Part shown: positions 17,216-53,956 of the stretch, in pieces
How the letters are laid out: every line of letters begins with the position of its first letter
How positions within the stretch are numbered: position 1 is the first letter of the stretch
DNA from: a virus
Taxonomy: Duplodnaviria; Caudoviricetes
IMG/VR virus record: IMGVR_UViG_3300032087_000093
Coordinates: 1-53,956 of that record
DNA length: 53,956 nucleotides
Strand: one strand, 5' to 3'
Position numbers and translations under genes: made by a program
Notes under the pieces: generated by a model
The model's input: the letters and a program-made list of their open reading frames with translations, nothing else
Told to the model about the DNA's origin: nothing
The model's database searches: none

Positions 17216-18413
17216 ACAGATACTTGGCTTCTGCCTGAACTTCGAGTTTTTCTCGAAGGTGTCCAACACAGTGACACGTGACATGTTCACGAAAGAAATG
17301 CGTGACGTATTCGACGTGATAACCTACACGCACACCACCTACGAGTGCGACATCACTGTAGGCGAACTGTCAGTCCTCTTCAATGACCGCAACCCTGCTA
17401 TGCCGGACTCGACACGAGAGCGGGCACAGGAACTGATTCTCACCCTAGACGAGGGCAACCCACACAACACGGACATGCACCTCGACATGGTGCGTAACTT
17501 CTGGCTGCGTGACCGTGCCCGGATTATCGGCGAGAAGGCCATTGAGATATTCACAGGCGAGAGCGAGGACTTTGGTGAGTTGCGGTCTATGGTCGAGTCT
17601 GTCGAGGACGGACGCATGTCTGACCGCACCACCTATGAAGAGGTGACGGACAGCCTCGACGAACTGCTCGACGCGAACACCGGAGAGCCTGACTTCCCTT
17701 TTGAGTTCGGCCTGATCAACGAGCGTGTGGCTGGCCTCGACAGGGGCAACTTGGGTATCATCTTTGCTCGTCCGGAAGTGGGCAAGACGACATTCTGCTG
17801 CTTCCTAGCCGCTTCGTATGTGCGGGCCGGACACAAGGTTGTCTACTGGGCAAACGAGGAGCCTGCTGAGAAGATCAAGATACGTCTCATACAGTCGTTC
17901 TTCAACATCACACGCAAGGAACTCGACGACAACCGCGCCAAGTACACACCGATGTACGAGCGGGATGTGATGCCGTACCTTAAAGTGATGGCCGCTGTGG
18001 GCATGGGCGTCGAGGAGGCGGACTCGTATGCAAAGCTGAACAAGCCGGACATCATGTTCATGGACCAGCTTGACAAGTTTCGCATATCCGGCGAGTACAA
18101 TCGGGGTGACGAGCGGCTCAAGGAGACGTATGTTCACGCACGTGAGATTGCCAAGCGTAACAAGATGCTGGTGTGGGCTGTCAGTCAAGCGTCAAACGAC
18201 GGACATGACCGTCAATTTATTGACTACAATATGATGGACAACTCGAAGACGGGCAAGGCCGGTGAGGCCGACATCATCATCGGCATCGGCAAGACAGGAG
18301 CGAGTGACGTAGAGAATATCGTGCGGCACATCTGCATTTCAAAGAACAAAATCAACGGATGGCACGGACCTATCAACGCACAGATTGACGTGCATCGTGG
18401 AGTGTACTACTGA
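17184..18413 (+). CDS. DnaB-like replicative helicase
   Basis: Walker A ARPEVGKT, Walker B IMFMDQ, AVSQ, ISKNK. Confidence 0.92.
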   Translation: MTSYDPTSIDKQILGFCLNFEFFSKVSNTVTRDMFTKEMRDVFDVITYTHTTYECDITVGELSVLFNDRNPAMPDSTRERAQELILTLDEGNPHNTDMHLDMVRNFWLRDRARIIGEKAIEIFTGESEDFGELRSMVESVEDGRMSDRTTYEEVTDSLDELLDANTGEPDFPFEFGLINERVAGLDRGNLGIIFARPEVGKTTFCCFLAASYVRAGHKVVYWANEEPAEKIKIRLIQSFFNITRKELDDNRAKYTPMYERDVMPYLKVMAAVGMGVEEADSYAKLNKPDIMFMDQLDKFRISGEYNRGDERLKETYVHAREIAKRNKMLVWAVSQASNDGHDRQFIDYNMMDNSKTGKAGEADIIIGIGKTGASDVENIVRHICISKNKINGWHGPINAQIDVHRGVYY

Positions 18414-18823
18414 TGAAGTTTGGGGATGTGGCACCAGACGGGCGAGTATTCATAGGGTATCGTCTTAAAAAAAGAAAAGACGGTACTTTCAGAAAGCAAG
18501 TACGATGGGTTTCACCTGCTTACTACGAAAGAATGAGAACAAACATCAATAAACGAAGATTGTGGAAAATAAGGAGAAGGAGACACTGGCTGAACAACTA
18601 TAAAATTAAAAAAGGTTGTGAAAGGTGTGGCTATAACACCCACGGTGTCGCATTACACTTTGATCACATAGAGCCGCCAAAGAAAGTTGATCAGGTATCT
18701 AAGATGCTAAAGGGAGGAAGAAGAAAGTTGATTGAGGAGGTTAGGAAGTGCAGAGTGTTATGCGCCAACTGTCACGCGATAAAAACATGGGAGGATATAC
18801 AGAATGAACGTACTGACGTTTGA
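18413..18823 (+). CDS. HNH endonuclease (probable free-standing homing endonuclease)
   Basis: CERC...LHFDHI...CRVLCANCHAIKT; AT-richer than its neighbours. Confidence 0.85.
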   Translation: MKFGDVAPDGRVFIGYRLKKRKDGTFRKQVRWVSPAYYERMRTNINKRRLWKIRRRRHWLNNYKIKKGCERCGYNTHGVALHFDHIEPPKKVDQVSKMLKGGRRKLIEEVRKCRVLCANCHAIKTWEDIQNERTDV

Positions 18824-19382
18824 CGTGGAGACAACTCACACGCACAAGACAGGTGGCGGCACCACTGCCCTGCCCTACTTTGGCAACAGTCTCGTAGCGA
18901 TAGGATACAAGTGGCTGGTTAGTACGGTCACCTACGACTGTTACTATCACTCTACGGAGCAGGCAACACCCGATGCGTTCGGCAAGTTTCAACTGGCACT
19001 GAACCACGCAGACATACTCATCGGACAGAACATCAAGTTCGACTTGCAGTGGGTACGTGACTGCGGGTTCGTATACAACGGAGATATCTATGATACTATG
19101 GTTGCGGAGTATGTTCTATCCAAAGCGAGACGATGGCCTCTTGGACTTGCTGCTCTTGCAAAAAAGTATGACACGGTGCAAAAAGAGAAAGACCTCGTTC
19201 AGCCGTACTTGGACGAGGGTAAGACGTTTTATGATATACCGTGGGAGATAGTACGCGAGTATGGCATCGCTGATGTCATAAGCACCGAACAGGTCGCACT
19301 CAAACAACTGGATGCCTTTGGCACTACATTCGAGGACTTATACAATGAACGACTTACTACCGACACTGCGTCTGTCGCTTGA
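18804..19382 (+). CDS. 3'-5' proofreading exonuclease domain of DNA polymerase A (separate ORF)
   Basis: ExoI FDVET, ExoII QNIKFD, DTM, ExoIII YGIAD. Confidence 0.9.
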   Translation: MNVLTFDVETTHTHKTGGGTTALPYFGNSLVAIGYKWLVSTVTYDCYYHSTEQATPDAFGKFQLALNHADILIGQNIKFDLQWVRDCGFVYNGDIYDTMVAEYVLSKARRWPLGLAALAKKYDTVQKEKDLVQPYLDEGKTFYDIPWEIVREYGIADVISTEQVALKQLDAFGTTFEDLYNERLTTDTASVA

Positions 19383-20880
19383 GATGACTGACACGCTGGC
19401 CCGTATCGAACGCAACGGACTACGCATCAACCTAGATACCCTAGACCAGATAGAGAAGCAGTATCAGGATGAATTCGATGCACTCGAACTGCGCCTCAAC
19501 GACATGGCGCGTGAGGCTATGGGTGACACACCTATCAGCCTGACCAGCCCCGACGACAGGTCGATGCTGCTCTACTCACGCAAAGTAAAAGACAAGAAGA
19601 CGTGGTCGAGCATATTCAACTTAGGCATGGAGCGGCGTGGTGCTACGATGAAGCCAAAGCAACGTACTCGCATGTCAGGAAAAGACTTTCGTCTCGCTGT
19701 ACGTAACAACACCGATGTCGTATATAGAACAATTGGTGAGAAGTGTGCGGGCTGCTTGGGTTTCGGACGTGTACACCTCGTACGCAAGGACGGTACACCA
19801 AGCAAGGCACCACGCATCTGCAAGGCTTGTGAGGGCAAGGGCGTGGTCTATCGTCCGACAAACGAGGTGGCTGGCTTCAAGGTGGTGCCGCGCAACGTGC
19901 GTGACGTGGCGGCTGCTGGCTTCAAGACGGACAAGGACACACTGGCCGAACGTGAACTCGAACTGTCGGGTCCGGCTCGTGACTTCGCATCAGCATACGT
20001 ACGCTATAACGCTCTTCGCATGTACTTGGGAACTTTCGTAGAGGGAATGAAAAACAATGTCGATGATCACGGAATCGTACATCCGGAATTTATGCAGTGT
20101 GTTACGGCGACGGGTCGCCTTTCGTCTCGTAACCCGAACTTTCAGAATATGCCACGTGGTAATACCTTCGAAATACGCAAAGTTGTCGAGAGTCGCTTCG
20201 AGGACGGCAAGATCATTGAGGGCGACTACTCGCAACTCGAATTCAGAGTGGCAGGATTTCTAGCCCACGACGAACAGGCCTATGCTGACGTGAGGGCTGG
20301 CACGGACGTACACAGCTACACGGCAGGGGTGATAGGCTGCTCACGTCAAGAAGCGAAGGCACACACCTTCAAGCCTCTGTATGGTGGCACTACGGGCACA
20401 GAAGCCCAGCAACGCTACTACAGGGCCTTCAAGGAGAAGTATGGGGGTGTAGCCCTCTGGCACGAAGACCTGCAGCGAGAGGCCGTTGAGCGGCGAGTAG
20501 TCACCCTTCCGTCTGGCAGGCAGTATGCTTTCCCCGATGCGCGTTGGACAAAGTACGGCACGGCTACACACCGCACAAACATCTGCAACTATCCTGTGCA
20601 GGGCTTTGCAACGGCTGACTTGTTGCCCGCTGCTCTCGTCCGGCTCGACAAACTATTCATGGAAAACGAACTGCAGTCGGTGATATGCAACACGGTTCAC
20701 GACTCTATCGTGATCGACTGTCATCCTGACGAAAAGGACATTGTTGTCAGGCTGATGCGAGAGGCTATGCTGTCCCTGCCTGAAGAGACGATGCGTCGGT
20801 ACGGCATAGAATATGACATGCCCGTCGAGATTGAAATAAAAATGGGCGATAATTGGCTTGACTTGGCTGTAGTCGATTAG
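19345..20880 (+). CDS. polA: family A DNA polymerase, polymerase domain with DnaJ-type zinc-finger insertion
   Basis: TGRLSS, motif A DYSQLE, motif B RQEAKAHTFKPLYG, motif C VHDS; CAGCLGFG and CKACEGKG; GAGGA RBS before ATG 19345. Confidence 0.95.
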   Translation: MNDLLPTLRLSLEMTDTLARIERNGLRINLDTLDQIEKQYQDEFDALELRLNDMAREAMGDTPISLTSPDDRSMLLYSRKVKDKKTWSSIFNLGMERRGATMKPKQRTRMSGKDFRLAVRNNTDVVYRTIGEKCAGCLGFGRVHLVRKDGTPSKAPRICKACEGKGVVYRPTNEVAGFKVVPRNVRDVAAAGFKTDKDTLAERELELSGPARDFASAYVRYNALRMYLGTFVEGMKNNVDDHGIVHPEFMQCVTATGRLSSRNPNFQNMPRGNTFEIRKVVESRFEDGKIIEGDYSQLEFRVAGFLAHDEQAYADVRAGTDVHSYTAGVIGCSRQEAKAHTFKPLYGGTTGTEAQQRYYRAFKEKYGGVALWHEDLQREAVERRVVTLPSGRQYAFPDARWTKYGTATHRTNICNYPVQGFATADLLPAALVRLDKLFMENELQSVICNTVHDSIVIDCHPDEKDIVVRLMREAMLSLPEETMRRYGIEYDMPVEIEIKMGDNWLDLAVVD

Positions 20881-20926: not shown

Positions 20927-21802
20927 ATGTTAGGGACAGAAATAGTAAATATGATGGACAACGACTTGGACAACATCGTAGCGGCGATGTCGAGTGACAA
21001 CGTCGAAGATATGATGAAACTTACTGGTCAGGGCGGTGGATCGACTGAGAAAGTCGGACTGCCCCGCCTGAATATCAACTACGATCAGGAGACTGATGAC
21101 GGTCAGACCCTCGTGCGAGGCGACTGGAAGATGTTTCTTGACGGACGTTTCATCTACGCCAAAGAGGTGAAGCTTCGGGCGTTGCTGCGTACCTACGAGT
21201 ATTCTATGTGGGACTCTGAGGCCAACGAGGGTAAGGGCGGCTTCTCATGCAAGTCAGTCCAAAAGAACACACTGGGCGGAGACTTCCCCGACACGCAGGG
21301 CGGCAACAAGTGCGGACGTTTGTCACGTGACGAAGAGGAAGCCCTAGATAAGGATGATGTTCGTTACCTGACTTCTCGTGCTGTCGTCTGCAATCAGGTA
21401 ATCTACGGACGCATCAGCGGGTCATTCCGTACGTCCGATGGTACGCCTGTTGAGGTGAGCGAGGAGCCGGTGATTGCTTACTTCAAGCGGTCAGGGTTCA
21501 AGCCTATCGCCGACTTCATTCAGGGGCTTACCAAGCAGAGCAAGCTGATGGCGCAGACAAACATCTTGCTGCGTACCAATCGGCAGAAGAAGGGCAGCGT
21601 GACCTACTGGACACCGATGCCTACGTTCGATAGCACTGTAGCTATTACGGACGACGATAAGGAACTGTTGGGGACTTTCGTAGAGACTGTGAAGGGACAC
21701 AACGAAAACGTAATGAATGGACACAGGGAAGCATCTAAGCTTATGTCAGACGATAGCGACATCGATCTGGCGGCGGATTTCAAAGATGCTGACGCTGCTT
21801 AA
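20927..21802 (+). CDS. putative single-stranded DNA-binding protein
   Basis: Follows PolA; own promoter and AAGGAG RBS; acidic C-terminal tail (DDSDIDLAADF). Confidence 0.55.
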   Translation: MLGTEIVNMMDNDLDNIVAAMSSDNVEDMMKLTGQGGGSTEKVGLPRLNINYDQETDDGQTLVRGDWKMFLDGRFIYAKEVKLRALLRTYEYSMWDSEANEGKGGFSCKSVQKNTLGGDFPDTQGGNKCGRLSRDEEEALDKDDVRYLTSRAVVCNQVIYGRISGSFRTSDGTPVEVSEEPVIAYFKRSGFKPIADFIQGLTKQSKLMAQTNILLRTNRQKKGSVTYWTPMPTFDSTVAITDDDKELLGTFVETVKGHNENVMNGHREASKLMSDDSDIDLAADFKDADAA

Positions 21803-22679
21803 CATTCAGGACTACATGTCTAAGGCTCTGCGTGGGGAGGTTGCGATCTCCCCCGCAAGTCTTTCTGAGTTTGTAGACACCACAAAGTATTCTGTAGAGC
21901 GGCAACTCACGGACAAACGCGGTGAGTATCGCATACGTATGTCCGGATTGGGCCGTCCGCTCTGTCAGCAAGTCCTTGAGAAGAAGGGCCACAAGGAGTC
22001 GATGCAGTACAATACGCTGTTTCGTTTCTTGTTTGGAGACATAACAGAGGCTATCCTGATGCTTGTCATGCGGGAAGCCGGTGTAGACATCGTAGATGCT
22101 CAACGACAGGTCGAACTGACGCTGGGGGATCACACAGTCAGGGGCACTCTCGACGTTATCATACGTGACGAGACAGGCACAGAGAAGGTGTGGGACATCA
22201 AGTCCGCAAGCGACTGGGCCTTCAAGAACAAGTTTACTGGATTCGGCGGCTATGACTCCCTGAAGAATGATGATCCATTCGGGTACGTCATGCAGGGCTT
22301 CCTCTATGCTGCAGCTACGGACATGCCCTTCGGTGGCTGGATCGTAGTCAACAAGTCTAGTGGTGAGGTGGCTATCGTCGAGGCACCTGAGTGGCAGGAA
22401 GAGGACCGTGTCAAATACTTGGCAGATGCAGTAGAGCGCGTCAAGTTCTTGACAGACCCTGATGTCGAGGAGTTCAAGCCCTATCCCGACGAGTTCGAGA
22501 CGTACCGCCGTAAGGGTGAAACCCTGCGTACGGGAAACAAGGTGCTGTCGAAGGAGTGCAACCTCTGCGGATTTCGCGAACACTGCTGGCCCGATGCAGT
22601 CCTACACGCCCGTGTGACTTCACAGGCTAAATCTCCGCCCCAAGTCTGGTATACCAAGCTAAAAACAAAGGAACTGTAA
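21786..22679 (+). CDS. PD-(D/E)xK (Cas4/RecB-like) exonuclease
   Basis: RMSGLGRPLC, GTLD...WDIKS, GYVMQGFLY, CNLCGFREHC. Confidence 0.85.
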   Translation: MLTLLNIQDYMSKALRGEVAISPASLSEFVDTTKYSVERQLTDKRGEYRIRMSGLGRPLCQQVLEKKGHKESMQYNTLFRFLFGDITEAILMLVMREAGVDIVDAQRQVELTLGDHTVRGTLDVIIRDETGTEKVWDIKSASDWAFKNKFTGFGGYDSLKNDDPFGYVMQGFLYAAATDMPFGGWIVVNKSSGEVAIVEAPEWQEEDRVKYLADAVERVKFLTDPDVEEFKPYPDEFETYRRKGETLRTGNKVLSKECNLCGFREHCWPDAVLHARVTSQAKSPPQVWYTKLKTKEL

Positions 22680-22680
22680 C

Positions 22681-23061
22681 ATGCCCTACCTCTTCGTTCG
22701 AGACTACGAGGTAGAACTGATGGAGATGAACAAAGACCTTCATCACGTGTATGTCGAGTCGCACAGGGCTAGTGGAGGTGAGCGTAAGCTTGTTCGTTTG
22801 CGTTTGAATGAGCGGGCACTGCCCCTCACTCTACGCGACAACTACAGTGACTTGGGCGCACTCACGTCGGACACTGAGAAACGAGACATCACCACACTCG
22901 AATCTGAACTGCAGAAGATAGGCAGACTCTCACACTCTGGAGTTATTGTATGCGTCCCACTGAATCGTTTGACAAACGAACTGTCTACAATAGAAAGACT
23001 TTCCCCAAGAGTGGCAGGGTACGTGATACAAAGAATGGGATCAATAGGAATGCAAATATGA
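22681..23061 (+). CDS. hypothetical protein
   Basis: GAGGA RBS; contiguous within the operon. Confidence 0.65.
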   Translation: MPYLFVRDYEVELMEMNKDLHHVYVESHRASGGERKLVRLRLNERALPLTLRDNYSDLGALTSDTEKRDITTLESELQKIGRLSHSGVIVCVPLNRLTNELSTIERLSPRVAGYVIQRMGSIGMQI

Positions 23062-23447
23062 AGCGGGGCAATCGCAAGGCTGGGTTCCGGTCTAATTTTG
23101 AGTTGGGTATAGCAAAAAAACTCAGCAGCAAAAAAATTCCGTACGAGTACGAGCAGATGCGACTCACGTACATACCCAAGCCTCGCACCTACACTCCAGA
23201 CTTTCACCTCACCAAGCACAACATAATCATTGAGGCGAAGGGCTACTTCGACAAGGGGGACAGGGTCAAGATGCTTCTGATCAAGGAGCAGCATCCTGAC
23301 TTGGACATTCGTATTGTCTTCTTGAATGCACGTAATAAAATTTACAAGGGCAGTAAAACCACGTATGGTGCGTGGGCCGACAAGAACGGGTTCGAGTGGG
23401 CAGAAGGCTCTATACCAGAGGAGTGGCTAAAAGATGACGACGATTGA
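23058..23447 (+). CDS. T7 gp3-like endonuclease I (Holliday junction resolvase)
   Basis: FRSNFE, YTPDF, IIIEAKG, TTYGAWADKNGF; ATGA-coupled start at 23058. Confidence 0.92.
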   Translation: MKRGNRKAGFRSNFELGIAKKLSSKKIPYEYEQMRLTYIPKPRTYTPDFHLTKHNIIIEAKGYFDKGDRVKMLLIKEQHPDLDIRIVFLNARNKIYKGSKTTYGAWADKNGFEWAEGSIPEEWLKDDDD

Positions 23448-38177: not shown

Positions 38178-38389
38178 TACCTAAGTCCCATAAATACTGA
38201 TACCACCATTGCAATCACGAGCATGGTGCTACCCATAATCATCGCTTCCAGCCGCCACATGCGCTTGTCCAACGAGTCTAGCTTGCCATGAACCAACTCA
38301 CGGAACATGGCACACTCCTTCTCGTGCGCTTCTAGCTGCAACTGTGTCTTGAGTTCCTGTTCCATGCGAGGTTCCGTGGTGAGTTTCAT
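38177..38389 (-). CDS. small coiled-coil membrane protein
   Basis: HEKEC motif, coiled coil, C-terminal transmembrane helix. Confidence 0.7.
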   Translation of the reverse strand: MKLTTEPRMEQELKTQLQLEAHEKECAMFRELVHGKLDSLDKRMWRLEAMIMGSTMLVIAMVVSVFMGLR

Positions 38390-39594
38390 TATTCAGCAGC
38401 TTCCAGTGCGGTCAGTCGTGTCTCAAGGTCGGCACGTTGCGTCTCAAGTGCTGTGATTTTTGCTTGCTGTTCTTTGATTGCGGCAGTCAGCAGAGGAATG
38501 ATGTCTGTGTATTGTAACCCAAGCGTTCCAATATCGTCATCCTGTACGTTTACAGCTTCTGGCAAAACCGCTTGTACATCCTGTGCAATCAAAAACACAC
38601 GGCGGGTATTTTCTTCATCTGCTTTGTATTTACCAATAACAGACCGAAGTGATGAAATCTTTTCAACTGCATCTGTAATGGGTTCAATAATGTCTTTGAC
38701 TCGTTCGTCAGATGTTGCTGTCCAGCTTGTGGCACCGTTGACCATATACTGACCAACATTATCACTATCCCGCACAATGTAAAAAAGATTGCCGCCTGAT
38801 TGGGTTCCAACACCCCATCTCGTTGCACCAGTCAAAATCAGGTTTGAATTTGTTGAGTTTGTTGTAGAACCCACCAGCAAGTCGCCGCTGCTGTCGATGC
38901 GCATGCGTTCGGAGGCACCAAAGTGAAAACTAAACGCATTGTCTGCATCTTTAACACGCAACTCTGCATAATCAGAACCACCTTGAAGTCTAATATTGCT
39001 TTCAGATGCGTTATTAATGTGCAGTTGACGACTAGGCGAACTCGTGCCAATGCCCACATTCCCGCCGCTTGTGATGCGCATATGTTCAGTAGAGCCAGCA
39101 GCATTGCGAAATAGTTTATTTTCAGCGTTTAAAAAAATATCACCGCCTGTATCAGCGGTAATATTAAAAATTCCGCTGTTTGTACCACCCGTAGTAATTG
39201 TATGGGTTGCCCCTACTCCACGACTAGATACGAAATTTACAGTAGCATCTGTGGATGATACATCCACGCCTGTGCTGGTGGTGGCGAGTTTGGCGGAGTT
39301 ATCATGATACAAAGTGATTGCGCCATCAGTATTAAAGGTAGCAAGTGTTTCTAATCCAGACTTTTGAAACTCAATAGAAGTACCGTCTGTATCTAGTATT
39401 AACTTACCAGTTCCATTGTCTTTGATTACGGAATTTGACCCATCATGATAAATCTGCAAGTCATTACCTGCACCAAACTGGACCTTGCCATTGTCCGCAA
39501 CGGACATGTCATTTGACAACACAATGTCATCAAGTGTCAGGGTGCCGGTGATGTCCTTATCTGCACCGTCAGCTAGGTCTCTTGCTCGTGTCAT
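38389..39594 (-). CDS. tail fibre with peptidase S74 intramolecular chaperone
   Basis: ERMRIDSSG repeats; TSDERVK...LIAQDV...AAIKEQ chaperone motifs. Confidence 0.88.
   Translation of the reverse strand: MTRARDLADGADKDITGTLTLDDIVLSNDMSVADNGKVQFGAGNDLQIYHDGSNSVIKDNGTGKLILDTDGTSIEFQKSGLETLATFNTDGAITLYHDNSAKLATTSTGVDVSSTDATVNFVSSRGVGATHTITTGGTNSGIFNITADTGGDIFLNAENKLFRNAAGSTEHMRITSGGNVGIGTSSPSRQLHINNASESNIRLQGGSDYAELRVKDADNAFSFHFGASERMRIDSSGDLLVGSTTNSTNSNLILTGATRWGVGTQSGGNLFYIVRDSDNVGQYMVNGATSWTATSDERVKDIIEPITDAVEKISSLRSVIGKYKADEENTRRVFLIAQDVQAVLPEAVNVQDDDIGTLGLQYTDIIPLLTAAIKEQQAKITALETQRADLETRLTALEAAE
38870..38910. repeat. 41-bp tail-fibre junction repeat, copy 1
   Basis: cccaccagcaagtcgccgctgctgtcgatgcgcatgcgttc. 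Confidence 0.9.
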
Positions 39595-41525
39595 TCTGCG
39601 TTCTCCAGTGCGGTAAGTCGTGTCTCAAGTTCTTGGATGGTTGCCACAAGTAGTGGCACCAGCTTTGACTGGTCAATGCCCTGATAAACAGGGTTGCCAT
39701 CATCATCGACTTCGTTGTGTGCGCCTGTAATTGCTTCCGGCACAACGGTCTGCACTTCATGTGCGAGGAAGCCGTCAACGGTTGTGTCGGCGTCTGCAAT
39801 GAAGTTGAAGCGGACAGGGTTGAGTTGCTTGAGGCGTGTTGTTGCGCCTGTCATATCAACTACGTTTTCTTTTAGGCGGTGGTCTGAGGATGTGTTATAG
39901 GCTGTTGCTGAAGCGGTTACTGATATGGAACCCACAGTGGTGTTGTCTTTGCGGAATAATGCAATGTCGCCGTCACTGCTTCGGCGGTTCAAAAGCAATG
40001 GTGCATCATTGTTTCGGGTTGCGACCAAAACATTACTTCTATTCAACTCAATGCCATCGGTAGCTGTATTCTCTACCGTTTTTCCAGTCATTACCGTGCC
40101 ATTGCTGTCGATGCGCATACGTTCTGTTGCGGTATTACCATACTCACCTGTGTAAAACCTAATTGGACTGGAGGCATGACCGCTTGTAATACCCAAGCTA
40201 CCTGCCGATGCTGTGTTGCCTGAGATAGAAGATTGCCCACTTAGAAAAGCGGTGCCAGAGAGGTAGAGGTCTTTCCAGCGAGTGCCACCCGCACCCAAGT
40301 CGAGAGCATTGTCCCAACCTGCACCAGTGCTGTTGTTCGCAGGGTCGACGCTGTAACCAGTGCCAACTTTTAAGCCGCCATATGTCGGGTTTTTGAAGAA
40401 TGGTCTGCCGCCGTTGGTGCCAATACTCCCCACAGTAACGTCATCTTTGCGTAAATTAATTATTTTCCCGTCATTGGTTGTTCTATTAAGGTCTAATGCA
40501 ATGTTACTATCTACAGAAATTCCTGTTTCACCTGTAGGTCTTACATCAAATCCATTTGTGTCAACTCCAATTGCAGTCTTTCCCACCAGCAAGTTGCCGC
40601 TGCTGTCGATGCGCATGCGTTCTGCTTGTCCATTAGTGCCAAATTGCATTGAATTGTCAGAATGGTCATATCTGATGCGTCCTGCGGCAGAATCGCCATT
40701 ATCTGCAAAAAACAAACTTGCTTTGCTAGTATTGCCAGCGCCTATTGTAATGCCAGCGTCACCAGAACCTTCAACAAACAATTCGTCACCAGAACTGGCT
40801 ACCGAAGAGCCTGATGAAGCGGTTTGGATATGTGCTTTTGCACTAAGCGAACTCGTCCCGATGCCCACGCCGCCACCAGCATCTAGGATAATATCAAAGT
40901 TAGTATCAATCGTTACATCAGTGCTTGCAGTTGCGTTTGTTATTGTATCAACAGCTAGACTGCCTGTCACTTGCGCGCCAAAAGAAGCGGTGGCGAGTTT
41001 TTTAGCACTATCGTAGTAAAGTTCTGCGGCACCATCTGGCACAGCCGCAATCATTGTTTCAGTATTTGCGGGATTAGACACAATAAAGTTCTGCGCTAAT
41101 ATCTTTAAATTTCCCGTACCTTGATCACTTAGAAAAGATGTAGACCCATCATGAAAAATCTGCAGGTCAGACCCAGCACCGAAGATGGCCTTGTCGTTGT
41201 CGCCAAGTGTTAGGTCACCGCCACTAATGTTGAAGTCACCGTTTACACTGCCACCAAACACACTGAATGTATCGTACACGACAATCTCAACCACATCCGA
41301 TGCAGTCAGGGCAGCAAGGCTACTGATTGTATTCGTTGATGGCGTGGCTGTGTAATCTGTGCCACTTACGAGGGCAACACCATTCAGGCTCACGTCTACG
41401 TAGTTCGCATCCGTGAACGACAGGCCAGTCACCTGTGCTGGCGCAAGCGAAGTCTCACCGCCTGACGCAGTGAAGTAGTATCGACTGCGTACAGCCTGAG
41501 ATGGTGTTTTACCCAAGTATGCCAT
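39591..41525 (-). CDS. tail fibre with peptidase S74 intramolecular chaperone
   Basis: MAYLGKTP N-terminus; ERMRIDS repeats; SSDHRLKEN...GFLAHEVQ...IDQSKLVPLL. Confidence 0.9.
   Translation of the reverse strand: MAYLGKTPSQAVRSRYYFTASGGETSLAPAQVTGLSFTDANYVDVSLNGVALVSGTDYTATPSTNTISSLAALTASDVVEIVVYDTFSVFGGSVNGDFNISGGDLTLGDNDKAIFGAGSDLQIFHDGSTSFLSDQGTGNLKILAQNFIVSNPANTETMIAAVPDGAAELYYDSAKKLATASFGAQVTGSLAVDTITNATASTDVTIDTNFDIILDAGGGVGIGTSSLSAKAHIQTASSGSSVASSGDELFVEGSGDAGITIGAGNTSKASLFFADNGDSAAGRIRYDHSDNSMQFGTNGQAERMRIDSSGNLLVGKTAIGVDTNGFDVRPTGETGISVDSNIALDLNRTTNDGKIINLRKDDVTVGSIGTNGGRPFFKNPTYGGLKVGTGYSVDPANNSTGAGWDNALDLGAGGTRWKDLYLSGTAFLSGQSSISGNTASAGSLGITSGHASSPIRFYTGEYGNTATERMRIDSNGTVMTGKTVENTATDGIELNRSNVLVATRNNDAPLLLNRRSSDGDIALFRKDNTTVGSISVTASATAYNTSSDHRLKENVVDMTGATTRLKQLNPVRFNFIADADTTVDGFLAHEVQTVVPEAITGAHNEVDDDGNPVYQGIDQSKLVPLLVATIQELETRLTALENAE
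40582..40622. repeat. 41-bp tail-fibre junction repeat, copy 2
   Basis: 1 mismatch to copy 1. Confidence 0.9.
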
Positions 41526-41526
41526 G

Positions 41527-41751
41527 TTATGCTACCTCTGCAGCTTCTTCCTCGTCAGTCTGCTCTTGTACAGACTTGATAAGTTCATTGGTGAACACGT
41601 TCTGTGCAGCTTGCACTTGGTCGAGTTCAAAGCGAATGTTCGCAGACTTGTTCTGACATGACCGAATCTGGTTAATCAGATAGGTCTGCTGCTCATTCAT
41701 GTCTTCCGGCGCATAGTCCTTGCCGTCGATTGTGATTACATTCTCAGTCAT
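41527..41751 (-). CDS. small coiled-coil tail-fibre-associated protein
   Basis: ITIDGKDY motif; AAGGAG RBS. Confidence 0.7.
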   Translation of the reverse strand: MTENVITIDGKDYAPEDMNEQQTYLINQIRSCQNKSANIRFELDQVQAAQNVFTNELIKSVQEQTDEEEAAEVA

Positions 41752-41760
41752 AGTTACTCC

Positions 41761-42117
41761 TTACCATCCAGACGGAAGACGATTACCCATTGCTGGGGAT
41801 GCCATTTCCGTGATTTGTGCATCAAGACTTGCCTGTACCTCTGCCTCTGTCTGGGCGAGATGTTCAAGTGTCTTGGTCTTGCACCAGTCTTTTGTCACGC
41901 TGTTGAACGTAACGAAGTCGGGGTCATCTGCTTCGGGCGTTGTAAGACCTGCTGTGCCATACATGCTGGCTGTCAGGTAGTTGCCGTCTGCGTCTTGTTC
42001 AGAGTCACTGACTGCTGTTACACGCCAGTGAATAGTTGAAATCACGTCGTCGTGACCATTCTGTGCAGTGTTGTGGACATCCAGTGTAGGGAAGTCCCAT
42101 GTGTATGTATTGGCCAT
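41761..42117 (-). CDS. tail-fibre-associated protein
   Basis: YTW...DVISTIHW...FVTFNSVTKDWC...PSGW pattern typical of fibre-linked small proteins. Confidence 0.7.
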   Translation of the reverse strand: MANTYTWDFPTLDVHNTAQNGHDDVISTIHWRVTAVSDSEQDADGNYLTASMYGTAGLTTPEADDPDFVTFNSVTKDWCKTKTLEHLAQTEAEVQASLDAQITEMASPAMGNRLPSGW

Positions 42118-42129
42118 CGTAAAACTCCT

Positions 42130-43821
42130 TTAACAAGCCATCAGGACGCAAGGCACAAGGTAGCTGCCATCGTCATAGGTATGTGAAACATTGGTGCTGG
42201 TCACCTTTGCAATCGTCTTGCTGCGAACAATGTCGTCGCCCTGCGGCTTGGCTGTGCCGTCACCTGCCGACATCAGCAAGTCGCCTCGTGCCACTGTCGT
42301 GCCGCTGGCAATACGGATGACCATATCGCCGGTCATTGCGATGTTCATGTCGGCGGTGTAGTCAGTATCGTCATCATCCCAGTTGACGAACACGCCAGCC
42401 ACATTGGCATCACCCTCGACAGACGACACAGCCATACAGTTAAGCTGCTCGTTGTCTTCGGTCACGCCGTCCTTTGTCCACTCTGCCATCTGGTCAAGGT
42501 TGGTCATTACAGTGCCTTTAACAAGGCCATCTATGCGATTGCCGTCAGTGGCTTGTGACCAGCGGGATAGGTGACCACCGTTGTACGATACGGTTGTGCC
42601 AGATATAGAAATGGTTCCTTCTGTTGTATCTGCGTGTCTAAATTGAGCAAGGATTCCATCAGAAGACTGTCTGTTCAAATATAGAACAGGGTCGCCACTA
42701 TTCGTAGCAGACACAAACCCTTCATTAGTTCCTATACCGATTGATACGCCATTAGTTGAAGATGCAGATACAGTCTTTCCAAACAGCACGTTATTAGTTT
42801 CAATACGCATACGTTCTGTGCCATCAGTGCCGATTACTATGGGGTTTGAACCTGTGCTTGTAATGCCACCTGTAGAACCTAAAACATCAGCACCAGTAAA
42901 AACAGGGTATGTGCCGCGTGACCTAGTAGAACCTGATAATTCTAGGTTTTTGAAGCGGTGAGAAGGGTCGCCAAGACTGATTGCATTATCTCTTGATGCA
43001 GGTCCAGATGGGTTCCACGGTATAATATAGTCAGAACCGCCAGCAAACAATACACCGACATCATCATTTCCAATGAATAGGTCACCGACGTTGTCAGTCC
43101 CAATACTCCCCACTTTGGTGCCGTCTTTTTTAAATGTTGCAATCTCACCATCAGATGATTTGCGGTTTCCAACGAAAGGAGCGTACCCGCTTACACTTGA
43201 TTGAAGTTGACCAACAGCAGTTAAAGAATGACCCACTATATTATTATCAGCAGGATAGACATTAGTGCCACCCACCAGCAGATTGCCGCTGCTGTCGATG
43301 CGCATGCGTTCTGAGGATGCACCACCGCCACTATTGGTGTGAAAAGTTAACTGAGTGCTTCCACCTCCGCTATAAGAGCCAACAGTAGCAAGACCACTGT
43401 CTGTTTCATAGTAAAGCTGAATGCCGTTTACGGAGCCTGTCGTGTCGAACGATGCGGTGCTGCCAGAGATACCTATCTGGCCGCTGCTGTCGATGCGGGC
43501 GGCTTCTGCATTTGCTGTGTAAAAGCGTGTAGCAGTATTTGTTCCACCTAAGAAAAACTCATCACCACTAAGCCCAACCCAAGCCTTTTTAGTGTTGCTG
43601 TCAGTTTCACTCAATATAAGCAGTGGTCTTGTGCCGGAAATATCAACTACAGGGCTGCTGCTACCACTGAAACTAGAACCGTCAGGAGACGCGGTGCCTA
43701 TTCCCACGTTATTATTGGTCGAATCAACGACAAGCGTAGTGCCGTCAATCTGAGCATCGCCAGTGACAGTCAGTTCATCTGCCGTGTTGAACCGTGTGAT
43801 GCCAGCACCAATGTAACCCAT
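42130..43821 (-). CDS. tail fibre with variant C-terminal chaperone
   Basis: MGYIG start; (E/A)(R/A)MRIDSSG-like repeats; SYNGGHLSRW...GDLLMSAGDGTAKPQ...VPCVL. Confidence 0.85.
   Translation of the reverse strand: MGYIGAGITRFNTADELTVTGDAQIDGTTLVVDSTNNNVGIGTASPDGSSFSGSSSPVVDISGTRPLLILSETDSNTKKAWVGLSGDEFFLGGTNTATRFYTANAEAARIDSSGQIGISGSTASFDTTGSVNGIQLYYETDSGLATVGSYSGGGSTQLTFHTNSGGGASSERMRIDSSGNLLVGGTNVYPADNNIVGHSLTAVGQLQSSVSGYAPFVGNRKSSDGEIATFKKDGTKVGSIGTDNVGDLFIGNDDVGVLFAGGSDYIIPWNPSGPASRDNAISLGDPSHRFKNLELSGSTRSRGTYPVFTGADVLGSTGGITSTGSNPIVIGTDGTERMRIETNNVLFGKTVSASSTNGVSIGIGTNEGFVSATNSGDPVLYLNRQSSDGILAQFRHADTTEGTISISGTTVSYNGGHLSRWSQATDGNRIDGLVKGTVMTNLDQMAEWTKDGVTEDNEQLNCMAVSSVEGDANVAGVFVNWDDDDTDYTADMNIAMTGDMVIRIASGTTVARGDLLMSAGDGTAKPQGDDIVRSKTIAKVTSTNVSHTYDDGSYLVPCVLMAC
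43271..43311. repeat. 41-bp tail-fibre junction repeat, copy 3
   Basis: 2 mismatches to copy 2. Confidence 0.9.
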
Positions 43822-44150
43822 CAGGTAATCTCCAAGATTGACAGAGCCACGTCAGCAGATGATGCCGTGTTGCTCGTTACTTTCAATACGTCACTTGCGT
43901 TCATCACAACCTTTTGTTCACCCCCAACGACAACAAGGCTACTACCCACCGGAACGGGTGCAGCCTTGATGAGATATACGTTGTCGCCGTCATTGTTCTC
44001 AAGCTGCACATCCACCTCAATCTGTGAGGACACGATGTTGGCAACAGTGAGGCCAATGATGGTGGTTTCGGTTGCTGATGCACCGGTGTGTACAGTGGCA
44101 GCAGATGTGCCTACACCGGTGTCAGTAACGAGTTTAAATGCGTTTGCCAT
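43821..44150 (-). CDS. small beta-rich tail-associated structural protein
   Basis: MANAFK...SILEIT pattern common before marine podovirus fibres. Confidence 0.7.
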   Translation of the reverse strand: MANAFKLVTDTGVGTSAATVHTGASATETTIIGLTVANIVSSQIEVDVQLENNDGDNVYLIKAAPVPVGSSLVVVGGEQKVVMNASDVLKVTSNTASSADVALSILEIT

Positions 44151-44170: not shown

Positions 44171-44199
44171 ATTATAGATTATTTTTAGCAGGTTGTCAA
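44171..44199 (-). promoter_or_regulatory. perfect-consensus sigma70 promoter for the tail-fibre cassette
   Basis: TTGACA-17 nt-TATAAT. Confidence 0.8.
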
Positions 44200-45905
44200 C
44201 CCAAAGCAATCGCTAGAGCCACAGCTTCGTTTGACGCCGCAGTCTGTGCGAAGGCAGTAGTTGCGATAGTTGTGTTGCTAGTGCCAGCAGCCTGTGTTGT
44301 GGCAGTAACAGCACTGGACAGTGACCCACCATTAATTGTCGGGCTAGTCAGTGTTTTGTTAGTTAAGGTTTGTGTGCCGGTCAGAGTTGTGACAGTGTTA
44401 TCAATAGCAACAGTAAGCGTGTTACCAGAACCTGACGTGTCAATACCTGTGCCACCGGCAATGTCCAGTGTCTCGCTGTCAAGGTCAATGCTTAGTGCGC
44501 CGCCACTGTCGCCCTGAAAGTCCAAGTCTTGTGCAGTGACTTGCGCATCAATGTAGGTCTTGATTGCCTTCGCAGAGGCGAGGGTATCATCCGAACCGGA
44601 CACAGACGACAGGTCAGTATCCAAAACACCCGACGCGAGGTCAGCAACCTCTAGGTTTGTGATGCTGTTGCCCGTACCATTAGCGTCGATGGTCTTGTTT
44701 GTGAGTGTGTCCGTTGTGGCACGACCTACGAGTGTGTCGCTACTGGTTGGCAGGGTGATTGTACCAGTGTTGCTTATAGATGAAATGACCGGGGTGGTCA
44801 GTGTTTTGTTCGTAAGCGTCTGCGTACCAGTGAGGGTGGTTACAGTGCTGTCGATTGCAACAGTCAGTGTGTTGCTCGAACCTGATGTGTCGATGCCCGT
44901 GCCACCAGCGATATCAAGAGTTTCGCTGTCAAGGTCAATGCTAAGTGCCCCACCACTGTCACCCTGAAAGTCGAGGTCCTGTGCAGTTATCTGTGCATCC
45001 ACGTACGCCTTGATGGCTTTGGCAGAGGCAAGAGTGGTGTCTGTTCCAGCAACACTAGACAGATCAGTGTCGAGTACACCCGACTTGAGGTTGTCCACTT
45101 CAATGTTGGAGACAGTGTTGTTGTCTACATCAATTGTCTTGTTTGTCAGGGTCTTTGTGGTTGCGGCGAGATACGTGTCGAAGGTATCGACTGTAGTCTG
45201 ACGCATTGTGCCGCCATCGTTGGTTACGATACCGTCACCCCCCGCTACGGCTGTCGTGCCAGCAGACGTGCCACCATCCATCAGATTGAGTTCTGCGGGA
45301 GTGGCAGTTACGTTTGTGCCGCCGATGTCGAGGGTTGTCATCGACACTTCGCCAGCAACAGTCAAGATGCCCGATGCGAGGGTCATCAAATCCGTATCGC
45401 TGGTGTGACCGATAGTTGCGCCGTCGATGTTGACGTTGTCGATAACAGCCTGTGTGATTACGCTGTTTGTGCCAAGCGTTGCACCATCTATAGAGCCGCC
45501 GTCAATGTTGGCTGTATCCGCAACCAAGCTGTCGATATTAGCTGTGCCGTGTATGTGCAGGTCTTTGAACTGCTTGCTCGACGAACCCAAATCGATATCG
45601 TTGTCGGTTGTTGGCTCAACTACGCCATCCTTGATAACAAGCTGTTCGACTGACGAACTGGATACGTCAACAGAAAACTCAATCTGATTGTTAGGATTGT
45701 CGATAACAACTTTGTTTAGAGGTGTTGTAACTCCGGGGTCACCAATAAGTCCGATGACCGGACCCTCACCCGCTGTGCCATCATGTTTATGGCCGCTAGA
45801 GTTATTGAACGAAGCAAGAAGCTGGTTAAACTCGTCGTTAGAATCTGCTGCATCAATAACGTCGCCATCAACATAGGTTGACTGTCGTGCGGAATATCCT
45901 GCCAT
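44196..45905 (-). CDS. proximal tail fibre / adaptor with internal duplication
   Basis: MAGYSARQS...GHKHDG N-terminal anchor; TLTNKT repeats; ends AVALAIALG. Confidence 0.85.
   Translation of the reverse strand: MAGYSARQSTYVDGDVIDAADSNDEFNQLLASFNNSSGHKHDGTAGEGPVIGLIGDPGVTTPLNKVVIDNPNNQIEFSVDVSSSSVEQLVIKDGVVEPTTDNDIDLGSSSKQFKDLHIHGTANIDSLVADTANIDGGSIDGATLGTNSVITQAVIDNVNIDGATIGHTSDTDLMTLASGILTVAGEVSMTTLDIGGTNVTATPAELNLMDGGTSAGTTAVAGGDGIVTNDGGTMRQTTVDTFDTYLAATTKTLTNKTIDVDNNTVSNIEVDNLKSGVLDTDLSSVAGTDTTLASAKAIKAYVDAQITAQDLDFQGDSGGALSIDLDSETLDIAGGTGIDTSGSSNTLTVAIDSTVTTLTGTQTLTNKTLTTPVISSISNTGTITLPTSSDTLVGRATTDTLTNKTIDANGTGNSITNLEVADLASGVLDTDLSSVSGSDDTLASAKAIKTYIDAQVTAQDLDFQGDSGGALSIDLDSETLDIAGGTGIDTSGSGNTLTVAIDNTVTTLTGTQTLTNKTLTSPTINGGSLSSAVTATTQAAGTSNTTIATTAFAQTAASNEAVALAIALG
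44340..45160. repeat. intragenic duplication, 450-bp period (boundaries approximate)
   Basis: SGVLDTDLSSV...AQDLDFQGDSGGALSIDLDSETLDIAGGTGIDTSG...TLTGTQTLTNKTLT twice; ccctgaaag at 44512 and 44962. Confidence 0.85.
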
Positions 45906-53047: not shown

Positions 53048-53956
53048 CTACGCGAAGTCGATGACGCCGCGAACGACAGCTTCTGGGCGCAGAACTTTGC
53101 GACCAAAAACGTGCAGACCACGAATAACGTCAGAGAACGACTCAGTTGAACGAACCACTTCGGTCTTAGCAATGTGCGAAGCAGTGGAGGTGGACGACAT
53201 GTGGCCAGCAAGAATCACATTCTCAGAGGCGTCAGTTGCCACACCAGACAGAGTTACCTGATCGGTACCTGCTGTTGAGTTAAGCGCAGTAGACTTGTAA
53301 CAGCGGAAACCAGCAAGGGTGCCCGGAATAGCAAGACCGTTACGCAGTGGAGAAGTAGCGTCACCAGTTACCTGAACTTCAGCCATCTTGTTTCCGGCTT
53401 GGAACATCTTCTCGTAGAAGATTGGTGGTGCTACAAACCAACGATTCTCTTCAGGCACAGACTGATCGTCCAGTGTACGTGCCATCAGCAGCATCAAGTT
53501 GATGCCAGCATCGTCAGTTTCTACGTTGATAGGAGCGGATGCAGTACCCAGCGCACTGTTTGTGGTGGTAAGACCACCTGACAGTGAAGCGTCGTCAGCA
53601 CCAGCGATACCTGCGCCATCAGAGATAGCTTGCAGGACGTTTGCATCGTACTTACGCTTCAGAGCAAATGCACCTGATGAGGTAGCAAGTGCTTCAAAGT
53701 TTACGTGCGAATGCCGCTCTTCGATGTCGTCAATCTTGAACGCGAAAGCGTTTGCGTTATCGACAACCATCGTGATTTGATCGTCAGCCAAGTCTTGTGC
53801 GTTTACGACGGAACCTCGTGTATACGAACTGACTGTGACTGTTGGTTCTTTGATGATGCGAACCGTGTCGCCAAAGTTTTCAATTTCGCCCGCGTAGTCG
53901 GTGTTTGTAATATCTTCTACAACCGAAGCACGACGGAAGAACTTGAGAACCTTTTG
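53048..53956 (-). CDS. major capsid protein, allele B (5' end cut by the window edge)
   Basis: Open frame to the window end; C-terminal FSDVIRGLHVFGRKVLRPE; same protein as 1-928. Confidence 0.93.
   Translation of the reverse strand, partial: QKVLKFFRRASVVEDITNTDYAGEIENFGDTVRIIKEPTVTVSSYTRGSVVNAQDLADDQITMVVDNANAFAFKIDDIEERHSHVNFEALATSSGAFALKRKYDANVLQAISDGAGIAGADDASLSGGLTTTNSALGTASAPINVETDDAGINLMLLMARTLDDQSVPEENRWFVAPPIFYEKMFQAGNKMAEVQVTGDATSPLRNGLAIPGTLAGFRCYKSTALNSTAGTDQVTLSGVATDASENVILAGHMSSTSTASHIAKTEVVRSTESFSDVIRGLHVFGRKVLRPEAVVRGVIDFA
53098..53956. repeat. terminal direct repeat copy B (pairs with 1-859)
   Basis: First 91 nt and last 44 nt identical to copy A; divergent in between. Confidence 0.95.

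Follow-up and report, generated by a model that had tools for sequence, protein, structure and literature searches.

Tail fibers decide which bacteria a phage can infect. The R64 shufflon (Rci), P1 Cin, Mu Gin and p15B Min are site-specific fiber switches that use a dedicated recombinase and inverted sites. In the modular theory of phage evolution (Botstein 1980; lambdoid phages), short conserved boundary or linker sequences reportedly guide homologous recombination. Conserved motifs in gp37 of the T-even phages are called 'His boxes'. According to the portion of PMC12032242 that deals with T-even gp38, its glycine-rich motifs are recombinational hotspots for modular shuffling (citing Tetart, Desplats and Krisch 1998 J Mol Biol 282:543; Trojet et al. 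2011). Here we analyze a 41-nucleotide (nt) repeat, which includes the coding sequence of the peptide ERMRIDSSG, in three tail fiber genes of a marine podophage-like virus (Duplodnaviria; Caudoviricetes). The DNA under study is the whole IMG/VR record IMGVR_UViG_3300032087_000093 (53,956 bases; its class is linear, and CheckV estimates it to be 70% complete), which is referred to as the window.

As far as that source describes them, the T-even gp37/gp38 motifs are like this repeat in being short conserved elements between variable receptor-binding segments, proposed as in-frame homologous crossover points with no dedicated recombinase. Unlike them, the repeat has the motif ERMRIDSSGN-hGhG and lies in putative trimeric S74/MAT-type beta-helical fibers of marine podophages; furthermore, synonymous homogenization within genomes and an enrichment of G or C at third codon positions (GC3) were measured here, in many uncultured phages. 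By analogy, the joint formed by the repeat would belong with the gp37/gp38 type of motif recombination, the closest known case, in a different and very large fiber family. With the R64 shufflon and with Cin, Gin and Min it shares short repeated DNA sites inside fiber or pilus-tip genes that allow C-terminal modules to be exchanged; unlike in those systems, no recombinase was found, the copies are direct and the symmetry of the core is not conserved. It also resembles the lambdoid linkers, short conserved sequences between exchangeable modules, but these are mostly intergenic, whereas the joint is found within ORFs, where a structural peptide keeps it in place. Literature searches combining tail fibers with gene conversion, synonymous sites or hotspots returned no report of this motif or of its homogenization and GC3 signatures. 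Searches for the peptides RMRIDSSG, MRIDSSGN and RIDSSGNVGIGT returned no paper among the matches listed, and the matches listed for ERMRI were unrelated words.

We consider it reasonably probable that the repeat forms a joint under structural constraint, its DNA being homogenized by, and guiding, homologous recombination and gene conversion, and that in-frame exchange of fiber modules is thereby permitted. A degenerate 41-mer matched the window exactly three times, once per fiber gene, in frame and on the minus strand, and had no match in 100 dinucleotide-preserving shuffles. This bears out the initial annotation of the sequence, which had reported a 41-bp junction once per fiber gene with 1-3 mismatches. 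Anchor 1 (38870..38910) encodes ERMRIDSSGDLLVG, amino acids (aa) 229-242 of the fiber gene g401; anchor 2 (40582..40622) and anchor 3 (43271..43311) both encode ERMRIDSSGNLLVG, aa 302-315 of g644 and aa 171-184 of g563, respectively. The anchors differ pairwise by 1, 2 and 3 nt. The 27 nt coding for ERMRIDSSG are identical in all three, and the differences are confined to the following 14 nt, which code for (N/D)LLVG. The whole peptide, ERMRIDSSG(N/D)LLVG, is the opening hairpin of a fiber repeat of ~75 aa.

Partial copies had been announced near 39064, 40098 and 43480; these are real (at 39061, 40098 and 43480), and a fourth was found at 42790. All are on the minus strand: EHMRITSGGNVGIG in g401 (39046..39087), ERMRIDSNGTVMTG in g644 (40083..40124), EAARIDSSGQIGIS in g563 (43465..43506) and, as the most diverged copy, ERMRIETNNVLFGK in g563 (42775..42816; peptide ERMRIETNN). 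This last copy marks the protein-level start of a widely shared C-terminal module of g563, and many relatives match from residue 323-336 on. The flanks of the anchors could not be aligned as DNA, in agreement with the earlier description of the flanking modules as unrelated. That description holds for DNA only, because the stretches of ~75 aa that follow the copies are distantly related repeat units, paralogous to one another (20-44% aa identity, motif included) and laid out as an ERMRI hairpin, a variable part and then NR.SSDG.I..F.KD..VGSIG.

The structure of the joint was considered in an AlphaFold2 monomer model of g401 (mean predicted local distance difference test score, 75.6). In the model, ERMRI and NLLVG form strands that are connected by a DSSG turn, and ERMRI and LLV are predicted to lie in neighboring strands. 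The best structural matches in the PDB were the Bdellovibrio MAT fibers Bd2133 and Bd3182, the MyRF ICA domain, T5 pb1 (L-shaped fiber) and the K1F chaperone. Foldseek comparison with 8OND, 8ONC and 7DC3 gave a probability of 1.0 and E values of 7e-7 to 3e-4, with template modeling scores of only 0.11-0.23, which are low because a monomer of an intertwined trimer was modeled. Like the MAT/S74 fibers (PDB 8OND, 8ONC, 4UW8, 3GW6), in so far as the available descriptions of these go, the fibers here have a modular stalk with repeated loop motifs and, in g401 and g644, a C-terminal S74 chaperone. As described in part of Caulton et al. 2024 (PMC10769870), MAT fiber beta-helices carry repeated capping loops with the consensus V-G-G/N-pi-X-X-P-X-X-X-L. 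This consensus resembles VGIGTSSPSRQL in the window, in a correspondence that is off by one residue and is one of sequence likeness only; the same part of that paper is not concerned with conservation of the motifs as DNA or with recombination at them. On the model, the 41-nt repeat would encode a structural joint that is conserved in trimeric S74/MAT-type tail fibers and opens each ~75-aa unit.

The identity of the anchors at synonymous sites is not explained by codon bias alone: the probability that three copies share all nine ERMRIDSSG codons is 2.4e-9 under the usage of 29 long phage ORFs and 4.3e-8 under fiber-gene codon usage. Furthermore, the anchor codons are not those preferred by the phage, AGC accounting for 17-22% of its Ser codons and ATC for 29-37% of its Ile codons. 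The GC-ending codons noted in the initial annotation were confirmed, since 12 of 13 degenerate codons end in G or C and GC3 of the three genes is 0.37-0.44. Conserved motifs in g401 and g644 are not generally GC-ending, as the equally conserved FGAGxDLQIxHDG motif of both genes is spelled with ATT, GAT, GGT and GGG. Six of the seven copies of the ERMRI family retain codons at nearly all positions with the same residue (4/5 in the degenerate copy of g401, 6/7 in that of g644, 7/7 in EAARIDSSGQIGIS and 8/8 in the remaining three), and the copy with the drifted peptide has lost them (1/4). Judged from the sequences, this is the pattern that homology-dependent conversion would give.

In other viral contigs, the exact 27-mer was present in 53 IMG/VR stretches and in ~45 different protein contexts. 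The degenerate pattern ERMRIDSSG(N/D) was found in at least 122 viral stretches, and 116 true copies among the matches listed served as the spelling sample. Within this sample, the spelling of the window occurred in 2 of 116 copies and the distances from the core ranged from 0 to 12 nt; the peptide is widespread, but its DNA spelling is not fixed. Pairs of ERMRIDSSG copies within one contig (n = 24) differed by a median of 1 of 27 nt (mean, 2.0), and 13 of the 24 differed by no more than 1 nt, with 59-83% of flanking positions mismatched. Between contigs, the median was 7 nt for all pairs (n = 12,066; 3% differing by no more than 1 nt) and 6 nt for GC-matched pairs (n = 1,256; 5%). At loci selected for one exact core, additional copies were 0-4 nt away from that core.

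GC3 was 0.53 in the motif versus 0.29 in the flanks (n = 112; Wilcoxon P = 2e-18). It was raised in the motif in nearly all contigs and correlated with flank GC3 (Spearman, 0.71). When one copy per locus was used and the null was built from 500 shuffles within flank-GC3 quintiles, identical 27-mers were detected in 22 of 4,955 pairs of unrelated contexts, versus 2.6 expected and a maximum of 9 in the shuffles (~8-fold). The two Ser positions had different codon spectra (TCC in 37 versus 7 of the 116 copies, among the matches listed), and mixed Ser spellings such as TCC-AGC recurred as whole strings in unrelated contexts. Such mixed spellings would fit an inherited DNA segment better than selection for one best codon.

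Copies were also found in cultured phages. CRP-7 has two copies that are 1 nt apart, and CRP-1 has three, two of which lie inside a gp43/gp42 duplication. In CRP-1 (L406), at least 400 nt are 100% identical between positions 8152-8560 and 8847-9255, that is, between the C-terminal part of gp43 (tail fiber) and gp42; the identical stretch includes the ERMRI and VGSI joints, and we attribute it to intragenomic duplication or conversion that took place recently in this cultured phage. The spellings in CRP-227 (Autographiviridae), CRP-5 (Zobellviridae) and CRP-821 are a few letters from that of the window. In the roseophages CRP-1, CRP-7, CRP-227, CRP-5 and CRP-821 (L406-L410), the joint has GGT AAT where the window has GGC AAC. 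These five represent at least two families (Autographiviridae and Zobellviridae), three being without a family in their records, and spell the joint almost identically; the spelling may track host group more than phage ancestry. In prokaryote genomes, the exact core was found in 0 stretches and a degenerate AGC-AGC spelling in 7 contigs of metagenome-assembled genomes only, which gave no clue to the host.

Homology breakpoints were analyzed in comparison loci, most of them metagenome contigs. L041 and L053 are 100% identical upstream through ERMRIDSSGNVGIG and unrelated beyond it, and L019 and L044 show the reverse, with unrelated sequence upstream and 100% identity starting at the E codon; both breakpoints are base-precise. 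In 1,711 pairs of core-bearing contexts, no breakpoint lay elsewhere within 120 nt. A portable cassette of g644 (40623..40841, minus strand), situated between the VGIGT and ERMRI joints, is ~89% identical in L342 and L341. Its high-scoring segment pairs (HSPs) of ~275 nt (89.1% identity to L342 at 40594-40867; 89.5% to L341 at 40611-40885) stop inside anchor 2, and at the other border of the cassette similarity likewise ceases at the VGIGT island; the window versus L341 and L342 is the third base-precise case. This island, GVGIGTSSLS (40842..40871, minus strand), is a second joint motif that forms the N-terminal border of the cassette and is an 89% repeat of 39031-39057.

Several points weigh against the joint as a site of module exchange. 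The clean one-sided pairs come from loci chosen for the exact core, L326-L405 were selected with peptide patterns adjoining two of the conserved islands (including GAGSDLQIFHDGST), and the breakpoint loci are metagenome contigs that are possibly chimeric at shared words. In a whole-locus all-against-all megablast (at least 88% identity), 3 of 425 breakpoints fell at the motif versus 1.6 expected (P = 0.22), most of them lying in other genes. When the comparison was restricted to motif-bearing ORFs, breakpoints at the motif numbered 3/19 (1.2 expected), 8/71 (4.2) and 16/122 (6.8), a weak excess; six shifted controls gave 9, 8, 0, 0, 17 and 9 matches, so that one of them equaled or exceeded the observed 16; in addition, the loci lack independence. 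The control with 17 matches was shifted by +200 nt, an interval that lands near the VGSIG motif of the same repeat, and this proximity may explain its count. In a low-stringency tblastn of the three proteins against the 226 loci, HSP ends were spread without clustering at the motif, a test that is uninformative because gapped alignments run through the repetitive stalk. No recombinant molecule was directly observed. Breakpoints at the anchors are thus seen in base-precise individual cases, and the weak excess in the all-against-all comparison does not carry the claim by itself. Of the earlier proposal that recurrent recombination at fixed anchors swaps receptor-binding modules, the excess identity, the module boundaries, the alternative joins in relatives and the more than expected recurrence of one spelling within and between phage genomes stood; the case for fixed anchors was weaker than proposed. 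The ERMRI joint is a single seam among several, and breakpoints in these fiber genes are mostly located elsewhere.

Contigs from four seawater runs were mapped on 38300-43900. Their summed depth was 10-30 times that of the neighbors at 40544-40730 and 43162-43348 (anchors 2 and 3) and was also high over 41105-41478 (FGAG island), and the bin of anchor 1 had no clear local peak. Matches often stopped at 38870, 39070, 40115, 40127, 40618, 42806 and 42816, and further at 43278, 43284, 43099, 43501 and 43707-43711 (a selection of positions only). Anchor-to-anchor joints (38911>40593, 40622/40624>43282 and 43313>40593) had sides of 20-32 nt, and joints of this kind often stem from other organisms. 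Logan contigs are built from 31-letter words. None of these contig data are counted as evidence, because the contigs may be chimeras, or may break off, precisely at words common to many phages.

Excess DNA identity, within-contig homogenization, GC3 enrichment, the same spelling in unrelated contexts and individual breakpoints at the joint were all observed. Recombination as the reason for the identity, which way causation runs, the enzymes involved and any influence on host range are inferred. In the mechanism that we propose, the DNA of the joint would stay similar enough for homologous pairing because the peptide is nearly invariant. General homologous recombination would then cross over or convert within the joint, by template switching, annealing or strand invasion carried out by host or phage functions. 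Concerted evolution could keep the copies of one genome, or of a pool of phages meeting in the same hosts, nearly letter-identical at synonymous sites, and the modules on either side of the joint could be exchanged in frame, within and between fiber genes. General homologous recombination is plausible since the phage encodes a T7 endonuclease I-type Holliday-junction resolvase (22950..23447, plus strand; PF05367, E 4e-41; phrog_945, phrog_9019) and a Cas4-domain (PD-(D/E)XK) exonuclease (21717..22679, plus strand; phrog_1990, E 2e-28), both candidates for a role in recombination. A diversity-generating retroelement was also considered and rejected: no reverse-transcriptase family was found among the 47 ORFs of the window, and the repeats are conserved joints, not variable regions.

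The same identity could have arisen by protein constraint and host translational selection only, the copies converging on accurate codons without recombination. In line with this, motif GC3 is raised nearly everywhere and tracks flank GC3, and the motif is, in the model, a strand-turn-strand fiber element. Two further points for such selection count against recombination: the spelling is common to roseophages of at least two families and to other groups, and host-specific codon selection finer than GC3 could yield such sharing. These points must be set against the non-preferred Ser and Ile codons of the anchors, the use of ATT, GAT and GGT in the FGAGxDLQIxHDG motif, the unequal TCC counts at the two Ser positions, the mixed spellings recurring as whole strings and the distance that remains between contigs after GC matching (median of 6 nt, versus 1 nt within contigs); we regard selection as the sole cause as improbable. 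There is a somewhat better, still small, chance that no conversion takes place within the genome and that modules were recently imported from a common pool by crossover in a resident anchor, the identity being a by-product of exchange between phages. The many contexts of the exact 27-mer, the identical spellings in unrelated contexts and the cassettes ~89% identical to other contigs would all be expected from import. However, import leaves unexplained why degenerate copies with changed residues share codons and why pairs within contigs are closer than GC-matched pairs between contigs. We regard it as a variant of the recombination explanation, not as a true alternative.

Site-specific recombination at the core by a tyrosine or serine recombinase, as a shufflon-like or Cin/Gin-like switch, can hardly be the explanation. 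The two overlapping 8-nt palindromes that had been pointed out, ATGCGCAT and CGCATGCG, are present, and with a CheckV estimate of 70% the record may be incomplete, though its ends overlap. Nevertheless, the palindromes are incidental: they result from the codon string CGC-ATG-CGC, which was found in 18 of 113 motif copies of other viral contigs, and they are not conserved in the wider family. The suggested involvement of a phage tyrosine recombinase was not borne out, as a six-frame search of the record for PF00589 gave 0 matches (14 of 14 control genomes were positive) and no recombinase family was detected by Pfam among the 47 ORFs. Moreover, all seven copies are direct repeats on one strand (minus), so that recombining them with one another would lead to the loss of genes, not to a switch. 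Conservation at the nucleotide level could also stem from a signal in the DNA or RNA that has nothing to do with recombination (for example, an internal promoter, a modification site or a structure in the mRNA); this is very improbable, since the three anchors with their flanks fold no more stably than shuffles (z of +0.73, +1.06 and +0.48) and the spelling, among the matches listed, varies from the core by as many as 12 differences between contigs. Equally improbable is an artefact in which metagenome assemblers introduced or joined identical words. The window and most comparison loci are indeed metagenome contigs, and Logan contigs can be chimeric at shared anchors. However, the cultured, clonally sequenced phages CRP-1, CRP-7, CRP-227 and CRP-5 have near-identical spellings, a 946-nt contig from an independent study spans anchor 1 with zero differences, and the longest run common to the copies of the window, 27 nt, is below the usual assembly words. 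Recombination and conversion at a structural joint remain the explanation that we favor.

Within the fiber genes, short conserved islands alternate with variable segments; besides the seven ERMRI-family copies there are NVGIGT, VGSIG and FGAGxDLQIxHDG islands, all on the minus strand. The initial annotation had listed two other shared anchors. CCAATACTCCCCAC, reported at 40420 and 43100, codes for VGSIG and was upheld, with 2 matches versus 0.17 expected; it is contained in the VGSIGT islands of g644 (40416..40433) and g563 (43096..43113). GTGGCGAGTTT, found at 39281 and 40990 and coding for KLAT, is at chance level (3 matches with at most one mismatch versus 1.08 expected; equaled in 7 of 100 shuffles). 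NVGIGTSSPS lies at 39031..39060 in g401. NVGIGTASPD of g563 (43681..43710) closes a conserved N-terminal region of 45 aa, and a match to L327 (92%) stops at 43685. The island GAGSDLQIFHDGST is located at 41139..41180 in g644, where a match to L326 and L298 (89.6%, 970 nt) stops at 41149, an end point biased by the way in which these loci were chosen, and GAGNDLQIYHDGSN at 39433..39474 in g401. In all four seawater runs, summed contig depth was highest over 41105-41478, above that of the ERMRI anchors; this interval contains the FGAGSDLQIFHDG island and the N-terminal domain of g644, and the island may be an even more widely shared joint than ERMRI.

The three fiber genes sit within a run of minus-strand structural genes, and all match PHROG tail-fiber or virion-protein families. 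g401 (ORF 38389..39594; 401 aa, P0001) matches many PHROG tail-fiber families; of 8,000 candidates that were scored, at least 4,089 are its relatives with an E value of 1e-10 or better. Both g401 and g644 (ORF 39591..41525; 644 aa, P0002) end in a C-terminal Peptidase_S74 chaperone (PF13884; E 9e-11 and 1e-8, respectively), and their translations contain SDxxxK-type motifs, SDERVK and SDHRLK, as expected of such a chaperone. The N-terminal part of g644 resembles the cyanophage P-SCSP1u fiber gp28 (PDB 8i4m; E 1e-12); this only PDB sequence match of P0002 covers the N-terminal repeats, not the joint. g563 (ORF 42130..43821; 563 aa, P0003; phrog_19195) has no S74 domain, matched no Pfam family and had no match in the PDB by sequence. 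Its C-terminal module (~42124-42622) is common to many viral contigs, with up to 89-92% nt identity in IMG/VR. Relatives found via a conserved 510-aa neighbor gene mostly have different fiber genes.

Upstream of g563 lies a 569-aa fiber-like gene (44196-45905) with an internal duplication, which is highly mosaic among relatives; a single segment of the relatives matches both 44347-44564 and 44797-45014. Between g563 and g644 (41527-42117) there are genes of 74 aa (phrog_21153) and 118 aa (DUF7936, phrog_7802), which travel together with the g644 N terminus in a single 970-nt block (89.6% identity in L326 and L298) and which could encode fiber assembly factors. The gene content of the window is marine podophage-like, with a portal, a large terminase, a family A DNA polymerase, a DnaB-type helicase, a B12-type ribonucleotide reductase, T7 endonuclease I and an SU10-type adaptor. 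An HNH endonuclease ORF (18413-18823) sits between the helicase gene and the DNA polymerase, which is read as two ORFs (3'-5' exonuclease, 18804-19382; polymerase domain, 19312-20880). Among cultured phages, those of Roseobacter, Pelagibacter, Puniceispirillum and Synechococcus gave the closest DNA matches, in the form of short patches. Because the same major-capsid fragment is encoded at both ends of the record (2-928 and 53048-53956; 284 of 286 residues identical), the record classed as linear and 70% complete probably represents a genome of ~53 kb that is complete or circularly permuted, the overlap of its ends consisting of two strain variants.

As a tentative extension, which we put forward as a possibility rather than as the expected outcome, the ERMRIDSSG joint could serve marine phage fibers as a common 'connector standard', a homology handle that is in frame, codon-locked and enriched in GC3. 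Second-order selection for evolvability, possibly aided by GC-biased gene conversion, would preserve its identity inside each genome and among unrelated phage families that meet in the same hosts, since lineages whose handles match can obtain receptor-binding modules from a common pool. If so, the spelling of the handle would mark phages that exchange fiber modules, and hence host-range communities. The measures used here (synonymous identity within versus between genomes, GC3 of motif versus flanks, recurrence of spellings in unrelated contexts) are applicable to any virome. If the joint channels crossover in frame, its spelling would be a simple sequence marker for phages with a common module pool, and it would point to natural, structurally tolerated seams for swapping fiber modules in laboratory phages. 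It would also explain the fast rebuilding of fibers in abundant marine phages of roseobacters, SAR116, SAR11 and cyanobacteria.

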